The notes below the pieces were generated by a model that worked only from the letters and a program-made list of their open reading frames with translations, was not told where the DNA came from and ran no database searches. The position numbers and the translations under genes are program-made. Positions 10,441-60,002 of a stretch of 64,000 bases of DNA are shown here, in pieces. Origin of the DNA: Escherichia coli (lineage in GTDB: Bacteria; Pseudomonadota; Gammaproteobacteria; Enterobacterales; Enterobacteriaceae); the NCBI GenBank assembly GCA_025336725.1, contig GCA_025336725.1_3647.1, one strand, 5' to 3'. Every line of letters starts with the position of its first letter. Position 1 is the first letter of the stretch.

Positions 10441-11583
10441 TTAGATAAAACGCTTGAACATAGAGGGTGATGAGATTGATGGAATCACACAAGGCAGCGC
10501 TACCTCCTCTTTCTCCAGGAAATTAATCGCAGAAGCTACACAGTCGGCCCAGTCGTCTTTTCTGTTAAATGTTGATCTTTCCCCGTTGAATTTTTCAAGT
10601 TCAGTCAGAAATGCTTCCAGAGTATCAGGATGAAAACTGGATTTTACAATCCTCACCATCCCTTGTTGGGCAAGATTGGCAAAAGGTGAGAACCTTGTCA
10701 GTTTAGATTTGTTGGAAGGCATTGGGTCTTCTTCAACCCTGAACCCTTCGGCGAGCAAGGATCTGGATGAGGTTAAGAACTCACTCTTACCTGCCTGACC
10801 AGGGTCCACAGAAAATACGATTATGCAATCATCTCCATCAAACTGCGCCTGTTTTCTGATGATCACATCTCGTTCCCCAGCCTTTTTACAGAACTTGCCT
10901 TCCAGACCTGTGGAATACCTCCCGTCATCCACGTTCTCAGGACAATAGTCCCCAGATAGGTAATAAAAGCCGTCGCTATCTTTACTTACCTTAACACTGG
11001 CGGTAAAGTCAGGAAATTTATTACCGGAAGTTCTCTCGGTTCCTGCCTTATCCCATGCCCTGCAAGATACTGATCCAAGAGGTACTCTATCGGCATCACG
11101 AAGGAAAGATCTTTGGAAATAGTTTGCACCCTCAGGTTTGGCAAACCAGTTGCCATGAAGAAGCTGGGCTTTTTCCAGCTCTGGCAGACCTTCAAGGAAA
11201 GCAAGGTATTCTGGGTTGTCTCTCAGGCATACAGGATTATCGAAAATTGTTGCGCCTATAAACGAGAATGACAACGGTCTTGGCTTGATTTCCACACCTA
11301 GTCCATTGACCGTAGTGTATTTCTCTATTAACTCCTCTTTAGAGTCTCCCCAGATAAACTCACCGTCGCGTCGGATAAAATATCTTTTCTTACCACATTT
11401 CTCCGGATCTGGATACCCTTCATCGTCCAACCACCACCTAACCAGTTTGGCAAGCATGTGTTCTGAGTCGGGGTTACAACTGATAACCATTCTTGATGGA
11501 TACTTTGACTGAGATCGCAGACGAGACATCAAATAGTCTATCTGCTCCCATTCGAATTGCGTGCCTTCATCGAAGCAAACCAT
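10441..11583 (-). CDS. terL: Large terminase, Walker B and nuclease segment
   Basis: Begins MVCFDEGTQF (Walker B hhhhDE); same frame as 11611..11988, separated from it by a single TAA at 11608-11610. Confidence 0.75.
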   Translation of the reverse strand: MVCFDEGTQFEWEQIDYLMSRLRSQSKYPSRMVISCNPDSEHMLAKLVRWWLDDEGYPDPEKCGKKRYFIRRDGEFIWGDSKEELIEKYTTVNGLGVEIKPRPLSFSFIGATIFDNPVCLRDNPEYLAFLEGLPELEKAQLLHGNWFAKPEGANYFQRSFLRDADRVPLGSVSCRAWDKAGTERTSGNKFPDFTASVKVSKDSDGFYYLSGDYCPENVDDGRYSTGLEGKFCKKAGERDVIIRKQAQFDGDDCIIVFSVDPGQAGKSEFLTSSRSLLAEGFRVEEDPMPSNKSKLTRFSPFANLAQQGMVRIVKSSFHPDTLEAFLTELEKFNGERSTFNRKDDWADCVASAINFLEKEEVALPCVIPSISSPSMFKRFI

Positions 11584-11610: not shown

Positions 11611-11988
11611 TTATCTTGGACATACTCCATGTGGCAGTATTTTACAACGGCCTCCTTTTTTGCTCCTGTCCCACTTGCCAGTGCTCGGATCAAACCGTGG
11701 AAAAATAAACTTATGATCCTTCTCTCTGAACTTTGGTTTAATGTTTTCAGGCAGATCACTGTAAATAGCTACTGCTTTAGGCCATAGCCCACCCTCACCT
11801 TCCAACTGTGGAGTTGTTCTTCGGAACATAACCACAGAGCTGTGTGGGTCATCAATAATTTTAAGTGGCATTAGCTGCAAGAGGAACGACTTGCCAGAAC
11901 CGGCTGCACCTCCGATCACCAAAATATCTGCATCGTTCTCAAGGATCATCTTCTGCTTTTCAGAACACGGTCCGTAAATCTTAGACAT
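11611..11988 (-). CDS. terL: Large terminase, N-terminal ATPase segment
   Basis: Walker A GGAAGSGKS; ends at an in-frame TAA 8 codons before the downstream segment. Confidence 0.75.
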   Translation of the reverse strand: MSKIYGPCSEKQKMILENDADILVIGGAAGSGKSFLLQLMPLKIIDDPHSSVVMFRRTTPQLEGEGGLWPKAVAIYSDLPENIKPKFREKDHKFIFPRFDPSTGKWDRSKKGGRCKILPHGVCPR

Positions 11989-13088: not shown

Positions 13089-13165
13089 TGGTCTCCACGG
13101 AGTGATTCGAACACTCGACCTCCTGATCCCAAATCAGGCGCTCTACCAAGCTGAGCTACGCGGAG
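13089..13165 (-). tRNA. tRNA-Pro (anticodon TGG)
   Basis: Hand-folded cloverleaf: acceptor CTCCGCG/CGTGGAG, anticodon stem CCTGA/TCAGG with loop TTTGGGA, T-loop TTCGAAT, encoded CCA. Confidence 0.65.
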
Positions 13166-13174
13166 TTTATAATT

Positions 13175-13249
13175 TGGTGGCCCTGGGTGGAATTGAACCA
13201 CCGTCTGGCGATTATGAGTCGCTTGCTTGAACCTTCCAGCTACAGGGCC
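13175..13249 (-). tRNA. tRNA-Met (anticodon CAT; could be Ile-lysidine)
   Basis: Acceptor GGCCCTG/CAGGGCC, anticodon loop CTCATAA, T-loop TTCAATT, encoded CCA. Confidence 0.6.
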
Positions 13250-13250
13250 A

Positions 13251-13326
13251 TGGTGCTGATGGCAGGACTCGAACCTGCAACCTATTGATTACAAATCAAT
13301 TGCACTACCAATTGTGCTACATCAGC
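13251..13326 (-). tRNA. tRNA-Thr (anticodon TGT)
   Basis: Acceptor GCTGATG/CATCAGC, anticodon stem ATTGA/TCAAT with loop TTTGTAA, T-arm GCAGG-TTCGAGT-CCTGC, CCA. Confidence 0.6.
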
Positions 13327-13331
13327 AAAAA

Positions 13332-13430
13332 GGTGCTAGGCGATGGAATCGAACCACCTATGTATTCAACGACTACTTCGTCTATTTTCAGGATTAAAAA
13401 TCCTCGCCCTTGCCAAAGGGCCTACCTAGC
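13332..13430 (-). tRNA. Atypical tRNA-like element (~99 nt), identity unresolved
   Basis: Good acceptor (GCTAGGT/GCCTAGC), D-arm and T-arm (GGTGG-TTCGATT-CCATC); only plausible anticodon hairpin AGGA-TTTTTAA-TCCT (TTT) plus a ~30-nt variable region with its own hairpin. Confidence 0.4.
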
Positions 13431-13528
13431 ATATTATGCGAATCATGCTGCTAGTCGGCGATGACGACTGTAACATTTGTTAATCCGGTTCTGCTTCCGG
13501 AGCTCGCTTAATTTCATGATCCACGATC

Positions 13529-13618
13529 TGGCAGAGAGTAATGGAATCGAACCATCATCGAGGATATCTCAACGGGACGGTTTTCAAGACCGCTTGAGCA
13601 CCATGCTCCCTACTCTCT
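13529..13618 (-). tRNA. tRNA-Ser (anticodon TGA), long variable arm
   Basis: Acceptor AGAGAGT/ACTCTCT, anticodon stem GCGGT/ACCGT with loop CTTGAAA, ~20-nt variable arm, T-loop TTCGATT, CCA. Confidence 0.6.
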
Positions 13619-13730
13619 TTTTATAAACAACACTGATAATGACACTGATTTTCGAACAGTTAGTGACTAGTATAAACGACGATAAACATCAATGTCATTA
13701 TCTATGTTATTTATCACAAATATGTAATTT

Positions 13731-13817
13731 TGGTGGGGAGTGATGGAGTCGAACCACCCGAGTCGCAATGACAATAGATTTACAGTCTACACCGCTACCC
13801 CTACGGTATAACTCCCC
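13731..13817 (-). tRNA. tRNA-Tyr (anticodon GTA), long variable arm
   Basis: Acceptor GGGGAGT/ACTCCCC, anticodon stem GTAGA/TCTAT with loop CTGTAAA, ~15-nt variable arm, T-loop TTCGACT, CCA. Confidence 0.6.
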
Positions 13818-13821
13818 GATT

Positions 13822-13896
13822 TGGCACCCCGTACTGGACTCGAACCAGTGTCAACGGCTTAGAAGGCCGCTGCTTTATCCACTAAGCTAACAGGGC
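13822..13896 (-). tRNA. tRNA-Arg (anticodon TCT)
   Basis: Anticodon stem GCGGC/GCCGT with loop CTTCTAA, T-loop TTCGAGT, CCA; acceptor contains G-U wobbles. Confidence 0.55.
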
Positions 13897-15896: not shown

Positions 15897-15977
15897 TGTC
15901 CGTATCACGGACAGTTAGTGTCCGTATTACGGACAGATGTGTCCGCGTGGCGGACAGTAGTGTCCGTCTCACGGACA
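15897..15977. promoter_or_regulatory. Array of four palindromic operator-like sites TGTCCG-N5-CGGACA
   Basis: Perfect 6-bp inverted arms at ~15897, 15919, 15940, 15961 (21-22 bp phasing), intergenic. Confidence 0.6.
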
Positions 15978-16052
15978 GTTGGTAATCTTTGTGCTGTTGT
16001 GGACATAAAACATACATACCTTTATAATACAAATATTTAAGTTTTTACTGGT

Positions 16053-37382: not shown

Positions 37383-38470
37383 ATGGCTGTATTTAATGCT
37401 GAGAACACCGCTCATAAAACTGGTGACTATCCGCTGTTTCTGGGACAGCAAATGGGCATGTACGACTCTATCAACAAAAAATATCCACAACTGTTTGAAC
37501 TATACAAAAAACAAAAAGAGCAAGATTGGGCAGAGGATGAAGTGGATTTGTCGCAATCTATTTCAGATTTTGTAACATGCTCTAAGTCAACTTATGACGT
37601 GATGGTGCAGACCTTGATGTGGCAATGGGAGGCTGATAGCGTTGCGGCAAGATCGATTATCTGCCTCTTTTCACCATTCATCACTAATAGCGAGCTTTTC
37701 ACTCTACTGATGAAACAGTCAGAGATTGAAGTTCTTCACGCACTAACCTACTCAGAGATTGTTAGACAATGCCTCCCTAATGCTCGTGAGATTATAGAAG
37801 AGATTCAGGAAAACCAAAACGTTCTGAGCAGATCTGGCGTTATTGTCAAATACATGCAAGAGCTTGAGATTATTGGTGCAAAATACCGACTGGATCCTTC
37901 TAGTGTTGAAGAAGATATTGTGCGGAAATGCATTCTTAGAGCGCTTTTGCACTTTTAGCTCTGGAAAGTATTGAGTTTGTGCAAGTTTTGCATATACTTT
38001 CGCAGTAGCTGAACAGGGTATTTTTTGTTCAGGTAGCGCAGCTTGTTCAAAAAATCATGCTTGACGAAATGCTGCACTCGAAAGGTGATTTTGCCATCAT
38101 TGATATCCTGCTTAATGATCCAGCATGGGAGAAAAGCTTCCTTGAGATAAAAGGGGAGTTAAAAGAGATTCTTGATGAAGTACGAACCAAAGAGTACGGT
38201 TGGAGCGACTATATTTTCAGCGAAGGAAGAGCGATTATAGGTCTTAACTCACCGTTGCTTAAAGAATGGGTTGACTATAACTGTTCACCGATTTATGATT
38301 ACTACGACATCGACAAAGACTTTGTGCCGCCAACAAAGGACCCGCTACCGTTTATGCAGGTGTGGATGAAACCTTCATTGCAACAGACGGCGAACCAAGA
38401 AATGTCGAACACTGACTACCGCGTCAACACAACTGTTAACGACGCTGAAGAAGAAATTTGGGAGTTTTAA
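37383..38470 (+). CDS. nrdB: Ribonucleotide reductase small subunit, disrupted by about three frameshifts
   Basis: N-part has ExxH-Y (EIEVLHALTY); the SFAxxFAxAE and DEMLH motifs appear in different frames within 37940-38060, each switch at a T-run. Confidence 0.65.
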
Positions 38471-38752: not shown

Positions 38753-41378
38753 AAGTTGTAAAACGGGACGGTAGAGAAGAGTTTTATAACGGAATCAAGG
38801 TGATCAAGGCGGCAGAGTCCGCCTTACTTGAGTCTGGGCATACTGAAGAAGAAGCTTACCGGATTGCCTGCGCGGTTAATGAAGTTGTTGCCAACAATCT
38901 GCCAACCGACCAGTGCACGATCTCTGTAAAAAATATCCATATCCTTGTTGAAGATGCTCTTATGGATATGGGTTTAAAATGTGCAGCCAGAGAATACATC
39001 CAGTATAGACAGACAAGAGATAATAACAGAGAGGCAGGTGGAAAACTGCTTGCAGATATTAGTGGCTTTTTGGATCGTACTTGTGATGAATTTACAAAAG
39101 AAAACGCAAATAAGCCTACTAATCATGTACACACTCATCGTGACCTGCTTGCAGGAATCCTTAGCAAACACCTTGCATCAACACAGATCCTGCCAGATCG
39201 TGTCTCAGAAGAGCACAACAAGGGCTTCATCCATGTGCATGATCTTGACTACTTGATCAGTCCGTTAACAAACTGTTGTTTGGTAAATTATCCGGATATG
39301 CTGGAAAACGGATTCAACATTGGTAACGCCCATGTCAGCAAGCCTAAGTCAATAGGGGTTGCAACAACAATCCTTAGCCAAATCTCTAGTGCAGTAGCTA
39401 GTGCTCAATATGGTGGTCAGACTATGAGCCATATTGATCATTATTTGGCACAGTATGCTGAAGCCACCTATGAGAAGAACCTTAAATTTTGTCAGGAGCA
39501 TTGGTTGCCGGATGCTGAAGGCGTTGCAATGCAGATGACTGATAAAGACGTGTTTGACAGTATGCAGACGTTGCTTTATCAAATCAACACGTTAACTTCT
39601 GTCAACGGTTAACAAACTGGCCGTTTTAAAACTCTGCTAACCTCAGTATGAGGGGTCAGCTGATTGCTGGCTAACGGGGAACGCTAAGGCGAAAGCTATG
39701 CCAATCCCGTGACTAGCTTCACAAGGAGTGAGGCGGTTGTAACGACTAACCTTTTGGTGTAGGGATTATGGAAGATTCCGAAACGCAGAGGTCTGATTAA
39801 GAATCACATGGTGTGATTTCAGGCAAGAGATAGTCTGGCCTTGTGGAAACATAAGGGTGGGGACCGCAAACCCCTTTTATCACATTAAGTTTAGGACTTG
39901 ATACCTCGGTCTTTGGTAGAATGATTACCAAAAACTATTTGAAAGTTCACAAAATGGGTCTTGGTGAAGAACGGATCACACCTGTGTTCCCTAAAGTATT
40001 GTTCTTCCTAGAAGAGGGTGTCAACATGAGCCCTGAGGATCCTAACTATGATTTGAAACGATTAGCTCTGGAATGCTCTGCAGAGCGGATTTATCCTGAC
40101 TTTGTTTCTGTTCCGCTAAATCGTAAGGTGACAGGTTCTACAGATGGCAAAGTAACGAGCATGGGTAAACTATAACTGCTCATGTAAAATCTATCTAAAC
40201 GGGGAAACTCCAGAACGGACAATCCCGTGCTAAATGTTCTTTTGAACTAAATGCCTAACGACTAACCGTGATGAATGTAGCGGTGTAGGGTGTAAGCCGA
40301 TGACACTCGAAATGGTAGACACACTAAGTGTGAAGATATAGTCTGATCTGCATGGGAACATGCAGCAGCACTTAAAGGTGCGGGGGTGGACTTGCGAACC
40401 ACCCTGAACATAATGTGTAGAAGTTTCTTATCGAAATATAGCGACCCTGTAACAGGCGAGGAGAAATACCTTGGCAGATTTAACTTAGGTGTTGTTAGCC
40501 TTAACCTACCAATGATTGCGGCAAAAGCTAAGACGGAAGGTGTTGATTTCTTTACCGTTCTAGACGAATATCTGGATTTGGCATATGAAGCTCACCTTGT
40601 AAGGGTTAACCGTCTGAAAGGCACTAAGGCAGGTCAGAACCCCATCATGTGGTGTGAAGGCGCTCTTGCTCGCTTGGATCCTGAAGAGAGTATTGATAAA
40701 CTCTTCTATGACGGGTACGCTTCCATCAGTATTGGGTATATTGGTGTGTATGAAACCTGTCAGATTTTGGGTAGAGAGGGAGACAAGGCTTTAGCTCTTG
40801 GAATCCTTCAGCACATGAAAGATGCTTGTGAGCGATATAAGAAGGAAAGTGGTCTGGCATTCAGCTTGTACGGCACTCCTTCTGAAAGCTTGTGCTACAA
40901 AGCTGCAACCTGTCTGGATCGTGAATATCCTGAGGTATTGAAGCACGAGCATGAATATATCACCAACAGTTTCCACCAACCAGTATGGATCAATAGTTCA
41001 CCTTTTGATAAGTGGAAGTATGAAGAAGGTTTTGCTATGATCTCCTCTGGCGGCAACATTGGATACATAGAGACACCTAACCTGAAAAACAACCTGGATG
41101 CTTTAGAGGCTCTTGTTGACTTCGGGTATAAACACATTATGTATTTTGGTATTAACCAGCCAGTGGATAAATGTCTTAAGTGTGGATTCTCTGGTGAGTT
41201 CAGTGCAACAGCTAAAGGGTTCTGCTGCCCTGCGTGCGGATGCCACGATGAACAATATATCTCAGTGATCCGAAGAGTGTCTGGCTATCTCTCCAGCCCG
41301 AACAGTAGGCCGTATAACACAGGTAAACAAGCAGAGGTTATCGAGCGAGTTAAGCACTACGGAAGTTGTGGCTGCTGA
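38749..41378 (+). CDS. nrdD: Anaerobic ribonucleotide reductase, three exons
   Basis: Exon1 38749..39609, exon2 ~39867..40166 (GPQTPF...DTS...GRMIT...PEDPNYDL), exon3 40416..41378 (CRSFL, RVSGYL glycyl-radical motif, CxxC...CxxC). Confidence 0.7.
39610..39866 (+). mobile_element. Group I intron 1 in nrdD (ORF-less, ~257 nt)
   Basis: Exon ends in T, intron begins with TAA stop and ends in G; contains AAGAGATAGTCTGG resembling the group I core; exon reading frame restored after removal. Confidence 0.5.
40167..40415 (+). mobile_element. Group I intron 2 in nrdD (ORF-less, ~249 nt)
   Basis: 5' exon ends ATGGGT, intron ends in G before TGT AGA (CRSFL); contains AAGATATAGTC, the conserved group I core element. 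Confidence 0.6.
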
Positions 41379-56427: not shown

Positions 56428-56821
56428 CCACACATCGTTTGGAGAATATGGAATACACAATTAAAACATTGTCAGAGGTTTTGGTGGTGATCCTGATGAT
56501 CATCACGTCCATAGCGGCTGTTGCCGGAATACTAACGGGTGGAACATGACCAACACACATGCATCTGAAGAGACATCTGAAGAAGTGACCGTAGAGGAAA
56601 ACTTAGACCCTGAGGCTGATGACCTGACGTGGGAAGACATCTTAGACATCTGGTTCTCTATCCTGCCTGAGCACGAAGAGTTCAGAGGTGGCAGACTATG
56701 AAGCACCGAGCCCACATAAGTTTATCATGCTAAAGCATGGCCTGAAGAGGCAAACGTATATAAATTCCTGCGCATTGGAACGTATAACCCTGTTCACACT
56801 CTCATTCCCAGAGGAGATTTC

Positions 56822-57037
56822 ATGAAGATAGAAATATTTGGTGGAGCTGACAACACTCGTGGCCTGATTTACCTTGAATTTGATGAATCTTACCTCCCAG
56901 AGGTGTTAAACATGGACGCTATTGCAGAATCCCTTAATGTAGACCCTAAAGATCTCTACTCAGGTGCTGAAATTGATGGTTGGGAAGAGACTATGAACAT
57001 TGATTTCAGTGAATCAGGTGATGAACCTCTGGACTGA
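56822..57037 (+). CDS. Small acidic hypothetical protein (MKIEIF-type)
   Basis: 71-aa track ORF, last plus-strand gene before the ORF-poor region. Confidence 0.35.
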   Translation: MKIEIFGGADNTRGLIYLEFDESYLPEVLNMDAIAESLNVDPKDLYSGAEIDGWEETMNIDFSESGDEPLD

Positions 57038-57385
57038 CACACAATTAGCTGCTCAGCTAAGGTTCTGTAGGCACCTATAACATCTTCCAACTAAATTTCC
57101 TACCAACACAGTTACTTACCTACCACACATGACTGTTTGCTTGTTTAGTGAGCAGTCATCCCTTGACATTCTTGCCTATCATGATAAAATTAAGTTCTTC
57201 TCTTTTCTTTTACCGAGTAATTCGGGTTTTCTGTTCTCTTCGGTTTGAAGGGGTATGGAGATACACCTGAGTGAACAGGGTGAACAACCGAACATTTGGC
57301 TATGGCATTAGCATGGCGAAGCGGACGGGTGACGAAAGAGGGGCCGGAGGACACCAGTCACTGCCATATAGTATATGGGTGATAA

Positions 57386-57927
57386 CCTGAAGAGTCTGAA
57401 TAAGTGTTTAAGTACCAGTCAGAGGAAAGGGTGAATGGTAGACGAAGGGGGAGGGGGGTTTCTTATATCTTTAATTTGTATACTTTATATACACTTGTAA
57501 ACCAATTCAATTGTAATTTGTTTACCACACAAAGTGGATAGAGACAAATATCACCTATTAAACTTGAATTATTTATAGAAAATACCACAACACCTCTTAA
57601 GTCTTTGATTTTACACACAAATCTTACAAATATCCTACCTCCATATTTAACATACTTGTAACATACTCCATATCCTACCTGCCTGATCAATTTTACTCCC
57701 ATCACATCCCCACATTCCCCTGTCTGTATTACTCCCCGCCCCGCTTGGGAGTCCTGTCATATCTGGCTTTCCGGCAAATATCACACCCACAAATATCATC
57801 ACCTGAAGAGGGTTTCATCCCATAGTATATACCTTGCCTGAAGAGCGCTTCATACACCACCTAAATTTTTTAATTGACCCCTCCCCGCCGCCGGAGAGGT
57901 TGGCTTTTCCCACACAGGCCTGAAGAG
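57386..57927 (+). repeat. Four same-strand copies of CCTGAAGAG
   Basis: Copies at ~57386, 57802, 57837, 57919; two preceded by ATAGTATAT. Confidence 0.5.
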
Positions 57928-58464
57928 TCAGCCAGAAATATCTCAAGGGGTCCGGTTATGCCACGATTCTGTGCTTGTCCTACAGGAGTGCTGCCCTGTC
58001 AGGAGCCGGTAGCGACTGGAGTGCTGCCAGGCGGACGGAATGGGAATACTTCTCATTCTTATAACGATTCTCAAATATCATGGCAGTGAGGCAAATTAAT
58101 AGGCCAGGCCGTTCACACAGTGGCACAACATTTGCAACCTATCTTGGGTGGGGGAATGAGAATACCTATCATTGTGAGAATAGTTATCATTACGGGCAAT
58201 TTAACATAATACCCATTATGCGCACCACTGGCGATACATACAGGGATTGATAACATGTGACACTGTTTACGCATATAACAATTGCATTTCTTACTATTTG
58301 TGGGGGATATAGTTAGCAGCCAATAGATTAGATATTAACCTGCAGCTATCCAGCCATTTAGACGTCTAAACGCCCACACAACAAGGATTATACATACATT
58401 CCTGAATGTAAACAGGGCCGCAAAAATGCTACCATACCAGATTGTAAATTTTTCATGCAGCACT

Positions 58465-58560
58465 TGACAAAGAGGAGAAAAACTTGTCTGACATGCTGTG
58501 ACATAATGGTGACATACTGGGCATGCTGTGACACAACTGACACGATTGACATAATTGACA
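58465..58560 (+). repeat. Phased array of TGACA(T) motifs
   Basis: Eight TGACA at ~58465, 58489, 58499, 58510, 58529, 58538, 58547, 58556; last four 9 bp apart; GCATGCTGTGACA occurs twice. Confidence 0.5.
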
Positions 58561-58683
58561 TGCATGACTGTTTACGCTCTCACTATTCCCGCTATTACTA
58601 TTCACTCCCTTTACTGTTTACATTTCCAATAATCTACATGCATAATAGTTTACATAGCTAACTATTTACACAGAGATGATAAG

Positions 58684-58924
58684 CCATGACATTCGTTTGC
58701 ATGACAATAATCACACTGATTATAATTAGCATGACATAATATAAAAGCAGGGCAACTATTAGAAGATCTATAGTTGCCTTGCTTATTATGTCATGATTAA
58801 CTGAATATAAGGCAACTATGATCTGATTAATAGTTTGCAGACAAACTATCACGGGGGTGATGGTTACTGCTTTTATATTATGTCGCGACTCCGTCGCGCC
58901 ATGCCATTCGTTTGCATAGTTGCC
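58684..58924. repeat. Direct repeat plus long imperfect palindrome
   Basis: CCATG(A/C)CATTCGTTTGCAT at ~58684 and ~58899; inverted arms CATGACATAATA...GGCAACTAT / ATAGTTGCC...ATTATGTCATG about an AGATCT centre (~58730-58795). Confidence 0.5.
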
Positions 58925-59530
58925 TTATTGTTACAGGTAAAACAATTGCATTGTTAATTGTTTCTTATCTTTTTCTTAGTCATCTAATGATTTCAGTCAG
59001 GACAGTAATGTACAGTAACCATTAGACGACTAAAGATTTCTCTGTTTATGATAACTCACCGTGATAATTTCGGACGGTTTACGAAAAATGTTGACACCCT
59101 GGCTGATTTATGTTATGCAGTTTACACGAATAATTATTTTATGCAGGTATTGACTATTCCGTTATTCTGTGGTTGGAATAAATACTTAGCAGGCTATAGA
59201 ATGGTGAACGTACGTAAATTCTGAGATTTGGCGGCTATAGTTATACTCGATTTTTCACGTAGAACACGGCTTTGTGGTTGTGTAAGTGTATGACTTATAA
59301 AGATTTTTAGTTATTGACAAGATATTGAAGATGTGCATCAGGTTAAATTTTGTGCAATAGCGGCATTACGTGCAATTTTGGGAGAGAAAACGGGTAAAAA
59401 TGGCATTGCTACCACATAATGAAAGATTATGCAATAGTTATTTTATATGTATATTTGTACAGTGTGCGGGATTGATGGCTCGTCAATTATTCCACTTGCC
59501 AGGCGGGGCCGTTGTGGTAGGAAGAGAGCA

Positions 59531-59559
59531 GACAAAAAGAAAGGGGCTTAGTGGGCCCC
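59531..59559 (-). terminator. Intrinsic terminator for the minus-strand block
   Basis: Minus-strand GGGGC-ccactaa-GCCCC followed by TTTCTTTTTGT. Confidence 0.45.
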
Positions 59560-59714
59560 TTGATAATTCAGTTAAAAAATTATAATGATTCGTATATTTC
59601 AAAAATCCGATTTGCCAGGCGTCGTTACGGAATCTAAATTTTTCTTCACGTTTGATCATAAGATCTTTATAGCCGTATTTCCTTAAGCACTTCATTAACT
59701 TTATGGCGGCATAC

Positions 59715-60002
59715 TTACATTATCTTGAGCGTCACCAATAAACTTGTTGCTATGTGGTGCATTGCTTTAATTTCTTCTTCCAGGACCAGGGCAACTACGC
59801 GGACCGGATCAAGCTGATATGCGGTAACATCAATGCGGCATTGTAGACGGCTTTTAACGTCTGCCACCGGATATACTGCAACCTCTTCCCCGTCAACATT
59901 GACGATAATTAGTTTACCATCGATTTCGAATCCTTTCGCCGCCGGACCGTGACAAAAAGCGTTATCAAAACTGTATGCCGGATTATCAGATTCAATGTTC
60001 AT
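59715..60002 (-). CDS. Hypothetical protein
   Basis: 95-aa track ORF. Confidence 0.3.
   Translation of the reverse strand: MNIESDNPAYSFDNAFCHGPAAKGFEIDGKLIIVNVDGEEVAVYPVADVKSRLQCRIDVTAYQLDPVRVVALVLEEEIKAMHHIATSLLVTLKIM

Follow-up and report, generated by a model that had tools for sequence, protein, structure and literature searches.

A conserved, one-directional repeat array beside the terminal repeat of rV5-like phages: a candidate recognition region for genome-end formation and packaging

The repeated element and its locus

The DNA analyzed here, a stretch of 64,000 nucleotides on contig GCA_025336725.1_3647.1 of the Escherichia coli assembly GCA_025336725.1 (henceforth the window), belongs to an rV5-like coliphage of the genus Vequintavirus and shows ~90% identity to many records. 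Our subject is the 9-mer CCTGAAGAG, a cluster of which sits in the gap between two converging gene blocks that end at rV5 ORF163 and ORF164. The cluster falls within the 2.6-kb box of the published rV5 map that was drawn by Kropinski et al. as “non-coding”, that is free of open reading frames (ORFs), and in which the expected terminators were not found (PMC3606486). The initial annotation had noted four same-strand copies of the 9-mer at 57386, 57802, 57837 and 57919; all four are exact and on the plus strand, and a fifth plus-strand copy at 56741 was missing from its list. The features on which the argument turns are the following:

56741-56749, plus strand: CCTGAAGAG copy 0, between the last two small plus-strand ORFs
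57386-57394, plus strand: CCTGAAGAG copy 1, within an ultra-conserved block
57802-57810, plus strand: CCTGAAGAG copy 2, from which the conserved unit runs on 3' as CCTGAAGAGGGTTTCAT
57837-57845, plus strand: CCTGAAGAG copy 3 (CCTGAAGAGCGCTTCAT), 35 bp past copy 2 in all relatives
57919-57927, plus strand: CCTGAAGAG copy 4, with the terminal repeat starting 102 bp on
58016-58029, plus strand: degenerate copy CTGGAGTGCTGCCA, ending at the terminal-repeat start
58030-58488, no strand assigned: direct terminal repeat of 459 bp, placed by homology to phage Gotham

In total the window holds eight copies of CCTGAAGAG, against 0.57 +/- 0.74 expected from 100 dinucleotide-preserving shuffles, none of which reached eight. 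Five of these are packed within 1.2 kb at the locus, at irregular spacings of 645, 416, 35 and 82 bp, and the other three are scattered (15402 on the minus strand, 32675 and 40680 on the plus strand). Neither CCTGAAGAG nor CTGAAG occurs within 58030-59700, an interval covering the terminal repeat and its right flank.

The position of the terminal repeat follows from the Gotham record, which carries a 459-bp repeat_region at both ends, the two copies being identical to each other and 93.7% identical to 58030-58488 of the window. The published terminal repeat of Gotham is likewise 459 bp long (PMC7471380), those of EdH4 and HdK5 are 458 bp long (PMC6563267), and several independently deposited records start or end exactly at 58030 or 58488. 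Measured from the left boundary of the repeat, the four copies first listed are thus found 102-644 bp further left. The cluster would accordingly be close to a physical end of the DNA in the virion or, while the phage replicates, to the junction between genomes in the concatemer. We regard this closeness to the physical genome end as the key to the likely role of the array. An indel-rich stretch with one to three copies of the unit (A)C(A/T)GGAGTGCTGCC leads up to the boundary itself, and the final copy stops exactly there (CTGGAGTGCTGCCA^GGCGGACGG, where ^ marks the start of the terminal repeat here and below); CAGGAGTGCTGCC at 57983-57995 is a unit similar to CTGGAGTGCTGCCA, and the copy number differs among phages. 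A separate short sequence, TGCCAGGCG, occurs three times in the window, always on the plus strand (58025-58033, 59497-59505 and 59613-59621), and the first of these straddles the left boundary (TGCCA^GGCG).

Conservation within Vequintavirus

We aligned the locus across 14 Vequintavirus sequences and then extended the alignment to 21 relatives. Across these 21 phages, 93 of the 99 covered copies of CCTGAAGAG are exact, and the deviating copies are single changes (CCCGAAGAG twice; CCTGAAAAG, CCTGAAGAT and TCTGAAGAG once each). By position, the copy at 56741 is present in all 21 relatives covering it, one of which has an insertion right after the motif; that at 57386 is exact in 20 of 21; that at 57802 in 18 of 19, the exception being CCCGAAGAG, with the two bases 5' of it varying; that at 57837 in 16 of 19, with the variants CCCGAAGAG, CCTGAAGAT and TCTGAAGAG; and that at 57919 in 19 of 19, with the base 5' of it varying between G and A. 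When the three copies outside the ultra-conserved block were compared with their surroundings, 2 of 27 motif columns were variable against 215 of 533 elsewhere in 57470-58029 (Fisher p = 3.6e-4). The base directly 5' of the motif varies at four of the five copies, the exception being 57386 inside the invariant block, and the element therefore has a sharp 5' edge; the six bases 3' of each copy are conserved, yet differ from copy to copy. Based on these alignments we consider the 9-mer to be under purifying selection, with a sharp 5' edge as its boundary on that side.

It had further been noted that ATAGTATAT precedes two of the copies, and this is correct for the window (57368-57376 and 57822-57830). 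We nevertheless regard it as incidental because it is peculiar to this genome, the relatives carrying ATGATATAT or ATAATACAT/CCT in its place.

The complete genome of rV5 (137,947 bp) contains nine copies of CCTGAAGAG, five of them within the 1.2 kb of 103717-104896. The other four lie within annotated coding sequences, on the coding strand (ORF104, thymidylate synthase, nrdD and ORF236), and as all of the copies elsewhere are intragenic sense-strand matches, CCTGAAGAG is not a genome-wide promoter motif. A similar density throughout the genome, which had been named as the observation that would speak against the element, is hence not seen, and the earlier statement that its clustering is not due to chance holds, in light of the excess over the shuffles, the conservation in the genus, the presence of its core in other genera and the complete strand bias.

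The array is accompanied by a second repeat family:

57545-58079, plus strand: (C)AAATATC, copies at 57546, 57628, 57776, 57791, 57936 and 58073

There are thus six plus-strand copies in ~540 bp and none on the minus strand there; outside this stretch, the window contains CAAATATC just once. The (C)AAATATC columns are conserved in the genus (3 of 40 variable, p = 2.6e-6), and the last copy, at 58073, sits 43 bp inside the terminal repeat.

Equivalent arrays in other genera of Vequintavirinae

Klebsiella phage VIK251 (Mydovirus) has an equivalent gap of 1.7 kb between converging genes, in which almost nothing aligns to the window by blastn or nhmmer. On one strand only, this gap carries two copies of CCTGAAG, two of TCTGAAG and one of TCTGAGG; AAAATATC is present three times. 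We fetched further loci from Av-05 (Avunavirus), SSE121 and 4MG (Seunavirus), CR8 (Certrevirus) and Hena1 (Henunavirus), anchored the loci of these genera on a shared 28-bp dif-like site (see below), and counted CTGAAG in the interval from -1000 to -150 relative to the anchor, a region in which these genera are unalignable to Vequintavirus by blastn. The counts are four in VIK251, four in Av-05, five in SSE121, four in 4MG, two in CR8 and none in Hena1, amounting over the six phages to 19 copies on the plus strand and none on the minus strand, against ~2.3 expected (Poisson p ~7e-12). The background used for this expectation was deliberately set high, at 0.45 per kb per strand, the measured values being 0.41-0.60 (rV5 genome, window and VIK251). 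AAATATC likewise persists in all of the other genera, where one copy lies ~43 bp past the start of the repeat.

The repeat-start junctions compare as follows; the boundary in Hena1 is that of the 519-bp terminal repeat annotated in its record, and that of the window is taken from Gotham:

VIK251: TCTGAGGTGCTA^GACGGAC
Av-05: TCTGAAGGGTTA^GACGGAC
SSE121: TCTGATGTGCTA^GACGGAC
4MG: TCTGATGTGTTA^GACGGAC
Hena1: TCTGATCTGTTA^GACGGAC
This window: CTGGAGTGCTGCCA^GGCGGAC

The other genera share the junction consensus TCTGA(R/T)NKGYTA^GACGGAC, and judging from these sequences a degenerate member of the repeat family is found at a fixed offset from the predicted cut in every genus. We suggest that CCTGAAGAG represents, in Vequintavirus, a DNA element that occurs across the subfamily in a single orientation and has the core YCTGAAG. 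It is present as four to six repeats in the several hundred bp before the short direct terminal repeat, interleaved with AAATATC.

Comparison with T7, T3 and other known systems

The closest parallel that we encountered is the end region of T7 and T3, whose short-repeat arrays are known as SRL and SRR; we know of no established function for the T7 arrays. In T7, CCTAAAG occurs 11 times in nucleotides 1-340, three copies lying inside the 160-bp repeat and eight just after it, and recurs before the right repeat, always on the same strand; the same is seen in T3. Some of the T7/T3 array copies read CCTAAAGAG, which is one transition away from CCTGAAGAG, such that the motif described here, (C)CTGAAG(AG), is identical to CCTAAAG at six of seven positions and to the CCTAAAGAG variants at eight of nine. 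Furthermore, T7 and T3 resemble the Vequintavirinae in having the pattern TCTGA-N5-TA at the same offset directly before the start of the repeat (T7 39766-39777, locus L021, TCTGAGTGACTA^TCTCAC; T3 37966-37977, locus L023, TCTGAATGGGTA^TCTCAT); for seven fixed positions at a fixed offset the chance probability of such a match is of the order of 1e-4. Both groups have a short direct terminal repeat (160 bp in T7 and 231 bp in T3 versus 459 bp here), a 7-9-nt motif on one strand only beside it, and promoters reading towards it, and the replication genes of rV5 are annotated as T7-, SIO1- or SP6-like. However, the T7/T3 arrays flank the repeat on both sides and also lie inside it, whereas YCTGAAG is found on one side only, and the repeat is followed by a different array, TGACAY, in the window but by CCTAAAG in T7/T3. 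By analogy, then, the element may work like the T7/T3 end region, but on sequence and layout it falls outside that family. A 13-mer in common with T3, AGTGCTGCCCTGT, was set aside as chance, random segments of the window sharing 13-mers with T3 in 53 of 200 trials.

A second parallel is offered by pac and cos regions such as the R sites of lambda cosB, the hexamer repeats of P1 pac and the pacL/pacR boxes of SPP1. Like the array as proposed here, these regions place several short repeated protein-binding sites next to the point where the terminase cleaves, and their polarity determines in which direction the DNA is packaged; they differ in being bound by known small terminase subunits and in serving cohesive-end or headful packaging, as against the exact short terminal repeat found here. 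The strict single-strand orientation relative to a target also recalls KOPS (GGGNAGGG, read by FtsK) and Chi (GCTGGTGG, read by RecBCD), the targets downstream of the CCTGAAGAG copies being the dif-like site and the DNA end. Both differ from CCTGAAGAG, however, in their unrelated sequence and in being spread along the replicon rather than forming a local cluster. KOPS itself shows no polarity in rV5, with nine copies of GGGNAGGG on the plus strand and eight on the minus strand. The idea of a KOPS-binding protein was dropped, as a Pfam search of six small flanking ORFs gave no matches, leaving the “DNA translocase FtsK” label of some records unsupported.

A dif-like site and other features around the terminal repeat

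Inside the terminal repeat lies a potential site of host recombination:

58199-58226, minus strand: dif-like XerC/XerD site, reading ATTTAACATAA-TACCCA-TTATGCGCACC on the plus strand

Read in reverse complement, this is a near-perfect copy of the dif site of E. coli, GGTGCGCATAA-TGTATA-TTATGTTAAAT (PMC3025954), with both 11-bp arms identical and four of the six central bases matching. The arms are invariant across all Vequintavirus loci, and a 49-nt query spanning the site matches 197 phage records, including phages of Mydovirus, Henunavirus, Avunavirus, Seunavirus and Certrevirus. Being inside the terminal repeat, the site is therefore present twice in virion DNA, in direct orientation: in Gotham, whose two repeat copies are identical, it spans positions 170-197 of the left one, and in Hena1 it falls inside the annotated terminal repeat. 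In the literature searched, no publication connects Vequintavirinae to XerD or dif. When the Keio collection was screened with LL12, an rV5-like phage, lipopolysaccharide genes alone were recovered (PMC7229145), and XerCD is therefore not essential for plating on K-12; this speaks against an indispensable role of XerCD but not against a quantitative one, for instance cyclization akin to that by Cre-lox in P1. In light of its sequence, the dif-like site could allow XerCD-mediated cyclization or resolution.

Two further features border the array and the repeat:

57151-57465, plus strand: ultra-conserved block, holding the copy at 57386 and specific to Vequintavirus
58489-58561, plus strand: TGACAY array of seven same-strand copies, beginning at the first base past the terminal repeat

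The block shows 96-100% identity to the window per 50-nt bin and a mean pairwise identity of 98.5%, against ~94% for the genes flanking it, and is the most conserved stretch of the 4.4-kb comparison. It opens with a predicted near-consensus extended -10 sigma-70 promoter, TTGACA-16-TGaTAAAAT (57163-57190), followed by ~270 nt of G-rich sequence that ends in G5AG6TTT and then by an AT-rich stretch; the GC skew changes sign at 57465. We consider the block a candidate for a non-coding RNA of ~270 nt or for a transcription-primed origin. It has no match in E. coli, so that an origin from the host was rejected, and it was not detected at the VIK251 locus by nhmmer. An IMG/VR search with an exact 24-mer of the block returned one contig, and protein-guided searches for the locus in IMG/VR and metagenomes yielded only further Vequintavirus copies plus one spurious locus (L032), which was discarded as its downstream part carries neither motif and reads as uninterrupted coding sequence unrelated to the phage region. 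Rfam gave no relevant match at gathering thresholds, nor at E <= 5 over 56900-59800. Folding of the array region gave no structure signal on either strand (z = +0.19 and -0.45), and the z-score of the block, only -1.5, is not convincing. The TGACAY region is poorly conserved in Vequintavirus (33-50% identity to the window per 50-nt bin), and the array was not seen in the other genera examined.

Several additional elements were observed in this region. Palindrome-like AATGAGAAT...TCATT units (TGGGAATACTTCTCATT, TGAGAATACCTATCATT and TGAGAATAGTTATCATT) lie within the terminal repeat at 58041-58057 and 58157-58191; the tandem pair among them matches by position a 34-36 bp repeat_region annotated in naswa, navn and pangalan, and similar AATGAGAATCATT units occur in VIK251, palindrome-like sites being also listed at 15926-15979 of locus L033. 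These units resemble operators that a dimeric DNA-binding protein would recognize. In the non-coding DNA on the right of the terminal repeat, 58730-58930 contains nested perfect inverted repeats, comprising an 18-nt pair (58733-58750 and 58867-58884), the palindromes GGCAACTAT/ATAGTTGCC, and CATGACATAATA/TATTATGTCATG. A C-rich element, CCCC(T/G)CCCCGCC(G/C)CCGGAG, at 57878-57899 is kept between array and repeat in several genera (locus L036, 1296-1318; L033, about 15427; L034, about 2134), and its SSE121 version was scored on the minus strand as a hairpin resembling a terminator. Farther away, the window contains a group I intron at 40093-40365 on the plus strand (Rfam, 72.7 bits), a cluster of six tRNA genes at 13089-13896 on the minus strand, and a large terminase gene that appears to be split into two ORFs (10441-11583 and 11611-11988).

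Proposed role and alternative explanations

Based on the enrichment, strand bias and conservation of the motif, and on its position relative to annotated terminal repeats, we propose, with evenly balanced confidence, that the CCTGAAGAG array is a DNA-level recognition array for genome-end formation and packaging. The array would constitute the cis-acting recognition region of the concatemer junction, whose repeated sites would be bound by the terminase or by a separate small DNA-recognition subunit. The sites, all facing the same way, would give the bound complex its polarity, and the repeat boundary would arise through nuclease cleavage 12 nt from the beginning of the final copy, the one nearest the cut (in the other genera TCTGA-N5-TA^, in the window CTGGAGTGCTGCCA^). 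We infer, accordingly, that a protein binds the motif, that this protein is the packaging enzyme and that cutting is guided by the copy adjacent to the boundary. Signals read by a directional machine are expected to have a fixed orientation, and the array adjoins the terminase cut point as predicted by homology to the annotated Gotham and Hena1 repeats.

Several observations weigh against this proposal. Homology is the sole basis for locating the terminal repeat in this genome. Unlike those of T7/T3, the array flanks the repeat on a single side; the copy at 56741 is 1.3 kb away from the repeat and the spacing of the copies is irregular; and Hena1 has just the looser form CCTGAR, in three copies. 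The likeness to the T7/T3 junction was noticed post hoc, T7 and T3 represent one lineage, and the junction of SP6, whose terminal repeat we take to be 174 bp long, lacks the TCTGA pattern; this likeness may reflect convergence or chance. Common descent with the T7/T3 ends is disfavored by the SP6 junction, by the one-sided layout and by the large terminase, for which see below. Furthermore, a strong conserved promoter reads through the array, such that an RNA-level or transcription-coupled role is conceivable. Finally, the large terminase shows no detectable sequence match to any solved structure, and no small terminase subunit was identified, the genes beside the large terminase looking like spanins, as described before (PMC7344957).

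Among the alternatives, the one we take most seriously, while considering it unlikely, is that the array serves another end-associated process, namely a transcription-primed origin, end protection or accessory sites for XerCD. As an origin, the 57163 promoter, its G-rich RNA with G5AG6TTT at the end, and the AT-rich stretch that follows would function in the manner of the T7 phiOR, ColE1 or mitochondrial CSB II origins. The fully conserved strong sigma-70 promoter, the G-rich block and the AT-rich sequence stand directly upstream of three copies, as would suit an origin, and the change in sign of GC skew at 57465 and the T7-, SIO1- or SP6-like annotation of the rV5 replication genes point the same way; in T7 and T3, moreover, the phiOL and phiOR promoters, which mark secondary origins, flank the ends. 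Yet the promoter and G-rich block are missing at VIK251 by nhmmer and have no counterpart in motif and promoter scans of the other genera, and as these genera keep the YCTGAAG array without the block, the array is independent of it. Iterons are regularly spaced direct repeats, usually of 17-22 bp, beside an AT-rich unwinding element. The spacings of the array (645, 416, 35 and 82 bp) are, by contrast, irregular and out of helical register, and one of them varies among phages through indels; an AT-rich stretch (57459-57525) is present, though upstream of most copies. A role in Xer recombination could be entertained on the grounds that the four clustered copies are followed, at a distance of 270-810 bp, by the dif-like site. 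In known Xer systems, however, the accessory sequences (cer, psi) are located on the XerC side at no more than ~200 bp, whereas the array is on the XerD side and farther off, and the lack of KOPS polarity in rV5 also weighs against such a role.

Rather less probable, in our estimate, is that the motif acts in RNA, with CCUGAAGAG serving as a protein-binding or base-pairing motif in transcripts from 57163 (and from near 56760). The purine-rich GAAGAG within it might engage in tandem G-A pairing or anneal to UUCUCUUCGG, a pyrimidine tract at 57236-57245. The strict strand specificity, the presence of four copies downstream of a near-consensus promoter on the same strand, and the folding of the copy at 57386 into a purine-rich internal loop (GAAGAG/GGAAA) flanking a hairpin are all consistent with this. 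CUGAAGA also fits the hammerhead core pattern CUGANGA; a hammerhead ribozyme was rejected on the lack of any Rfam hammerhead match at E <= 5 in 56900-59800. However, the hairpin plus GAAA follow the copy at 57386 only, and the copies have no common structural context; the folding energy of the array is no better than that of shuffles and the block reaches just z = -1.5; no Rfam family matches; the copy at 56741 precedes the 57163 promoter; in other genera, the promoters ahead of the arrays match the consensus only weakly; and the fixed offset of the cut-proximal copy to the DNA end is more simply understood at the level of DNA. A literature search found no paper describing transcription of the array region. 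As for the initial suggestion of a “promoter-like or protein-recognition” element, the oriented recognition element is favored by conservation and strand bias, while the promoter part finds no general support. We regard it as very improbable that the motif is an activator or sigma-appropriator box replacing the -35 element, in the manner of the MotA box of T4 middle promoters: the copies at 56741 and 57802 are followed after 9-10 nt by CATAAT/TATAAT in most relatives, and the first copy of VIK251 overlaps a -35-like hexamer, TTGACC, but three of the five copies have no -10 element at a matching distance, elsewhere in the 138 kb of the rV5 genome no gene is preceded by a copy, none of the copies stands at a fixed distance from a predicted sigma-70 promoter, and four have no downstream gene, the region being free of ORFs (PMC3606486).

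Going beyond the recognition array proposed above, one may posit, as an unlikely and speculative extension, that the array belongs to a conserved terminal module by which Vequintavirinae link exact-end packaging to recombination by the XerCD of the host, and which preserves an end-cutting specificity ancestral to T7-like and rV5-like phages. In such a module XerC/XerD could circularize the incoming linear genome, as Cre-lox does in P1, or release unit-length circles from concatemers. A translocating enzyme, either the terminase or an Xer activator, would be steered to the cut site and dif by the polar YCTGAAG/AAATATC arrays, and T7-like podoviruses and rV5-like myoviruses would use ancestrally related end-cutting specificities, as perhaps reflected in their common TCTGA-N5-TA^ junction.

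Implications

The finding is real, non-random and ordinary in kind: cis-acting repeats at a phage genome end, which are backed by cross-genus conservation and which, as far as we could find, are apparently undescribed for rV5-like phages. Its interest is raised by the similarity of the junction to that of T7/T3 and by the dif site in the repeat. Phages of this group are widely used and proposed for the control of E. coli O157 and for phage therapy, and the 2.6-kb “non-coding” box has been without an assigned function since 2013 (PMC3606486). On the homology presented here, the physical genome ends would now be placed in this box, and the conserved, oriented cis-elements beside the cut site provide a concrete candidate for the packaging signal. 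Such a signal would be of use in linearizing and annotating genomes, in engineering and rebooting phages, in designing packageable vectors and in judging the risk of transduction. If true, the similarity of the junction to that of T7/T3 bears on the evolution of packaging with exact terminal repeats, and the dif site within the repeat raises the new question of whether virulent tailed phages make use of host Xer recombination.

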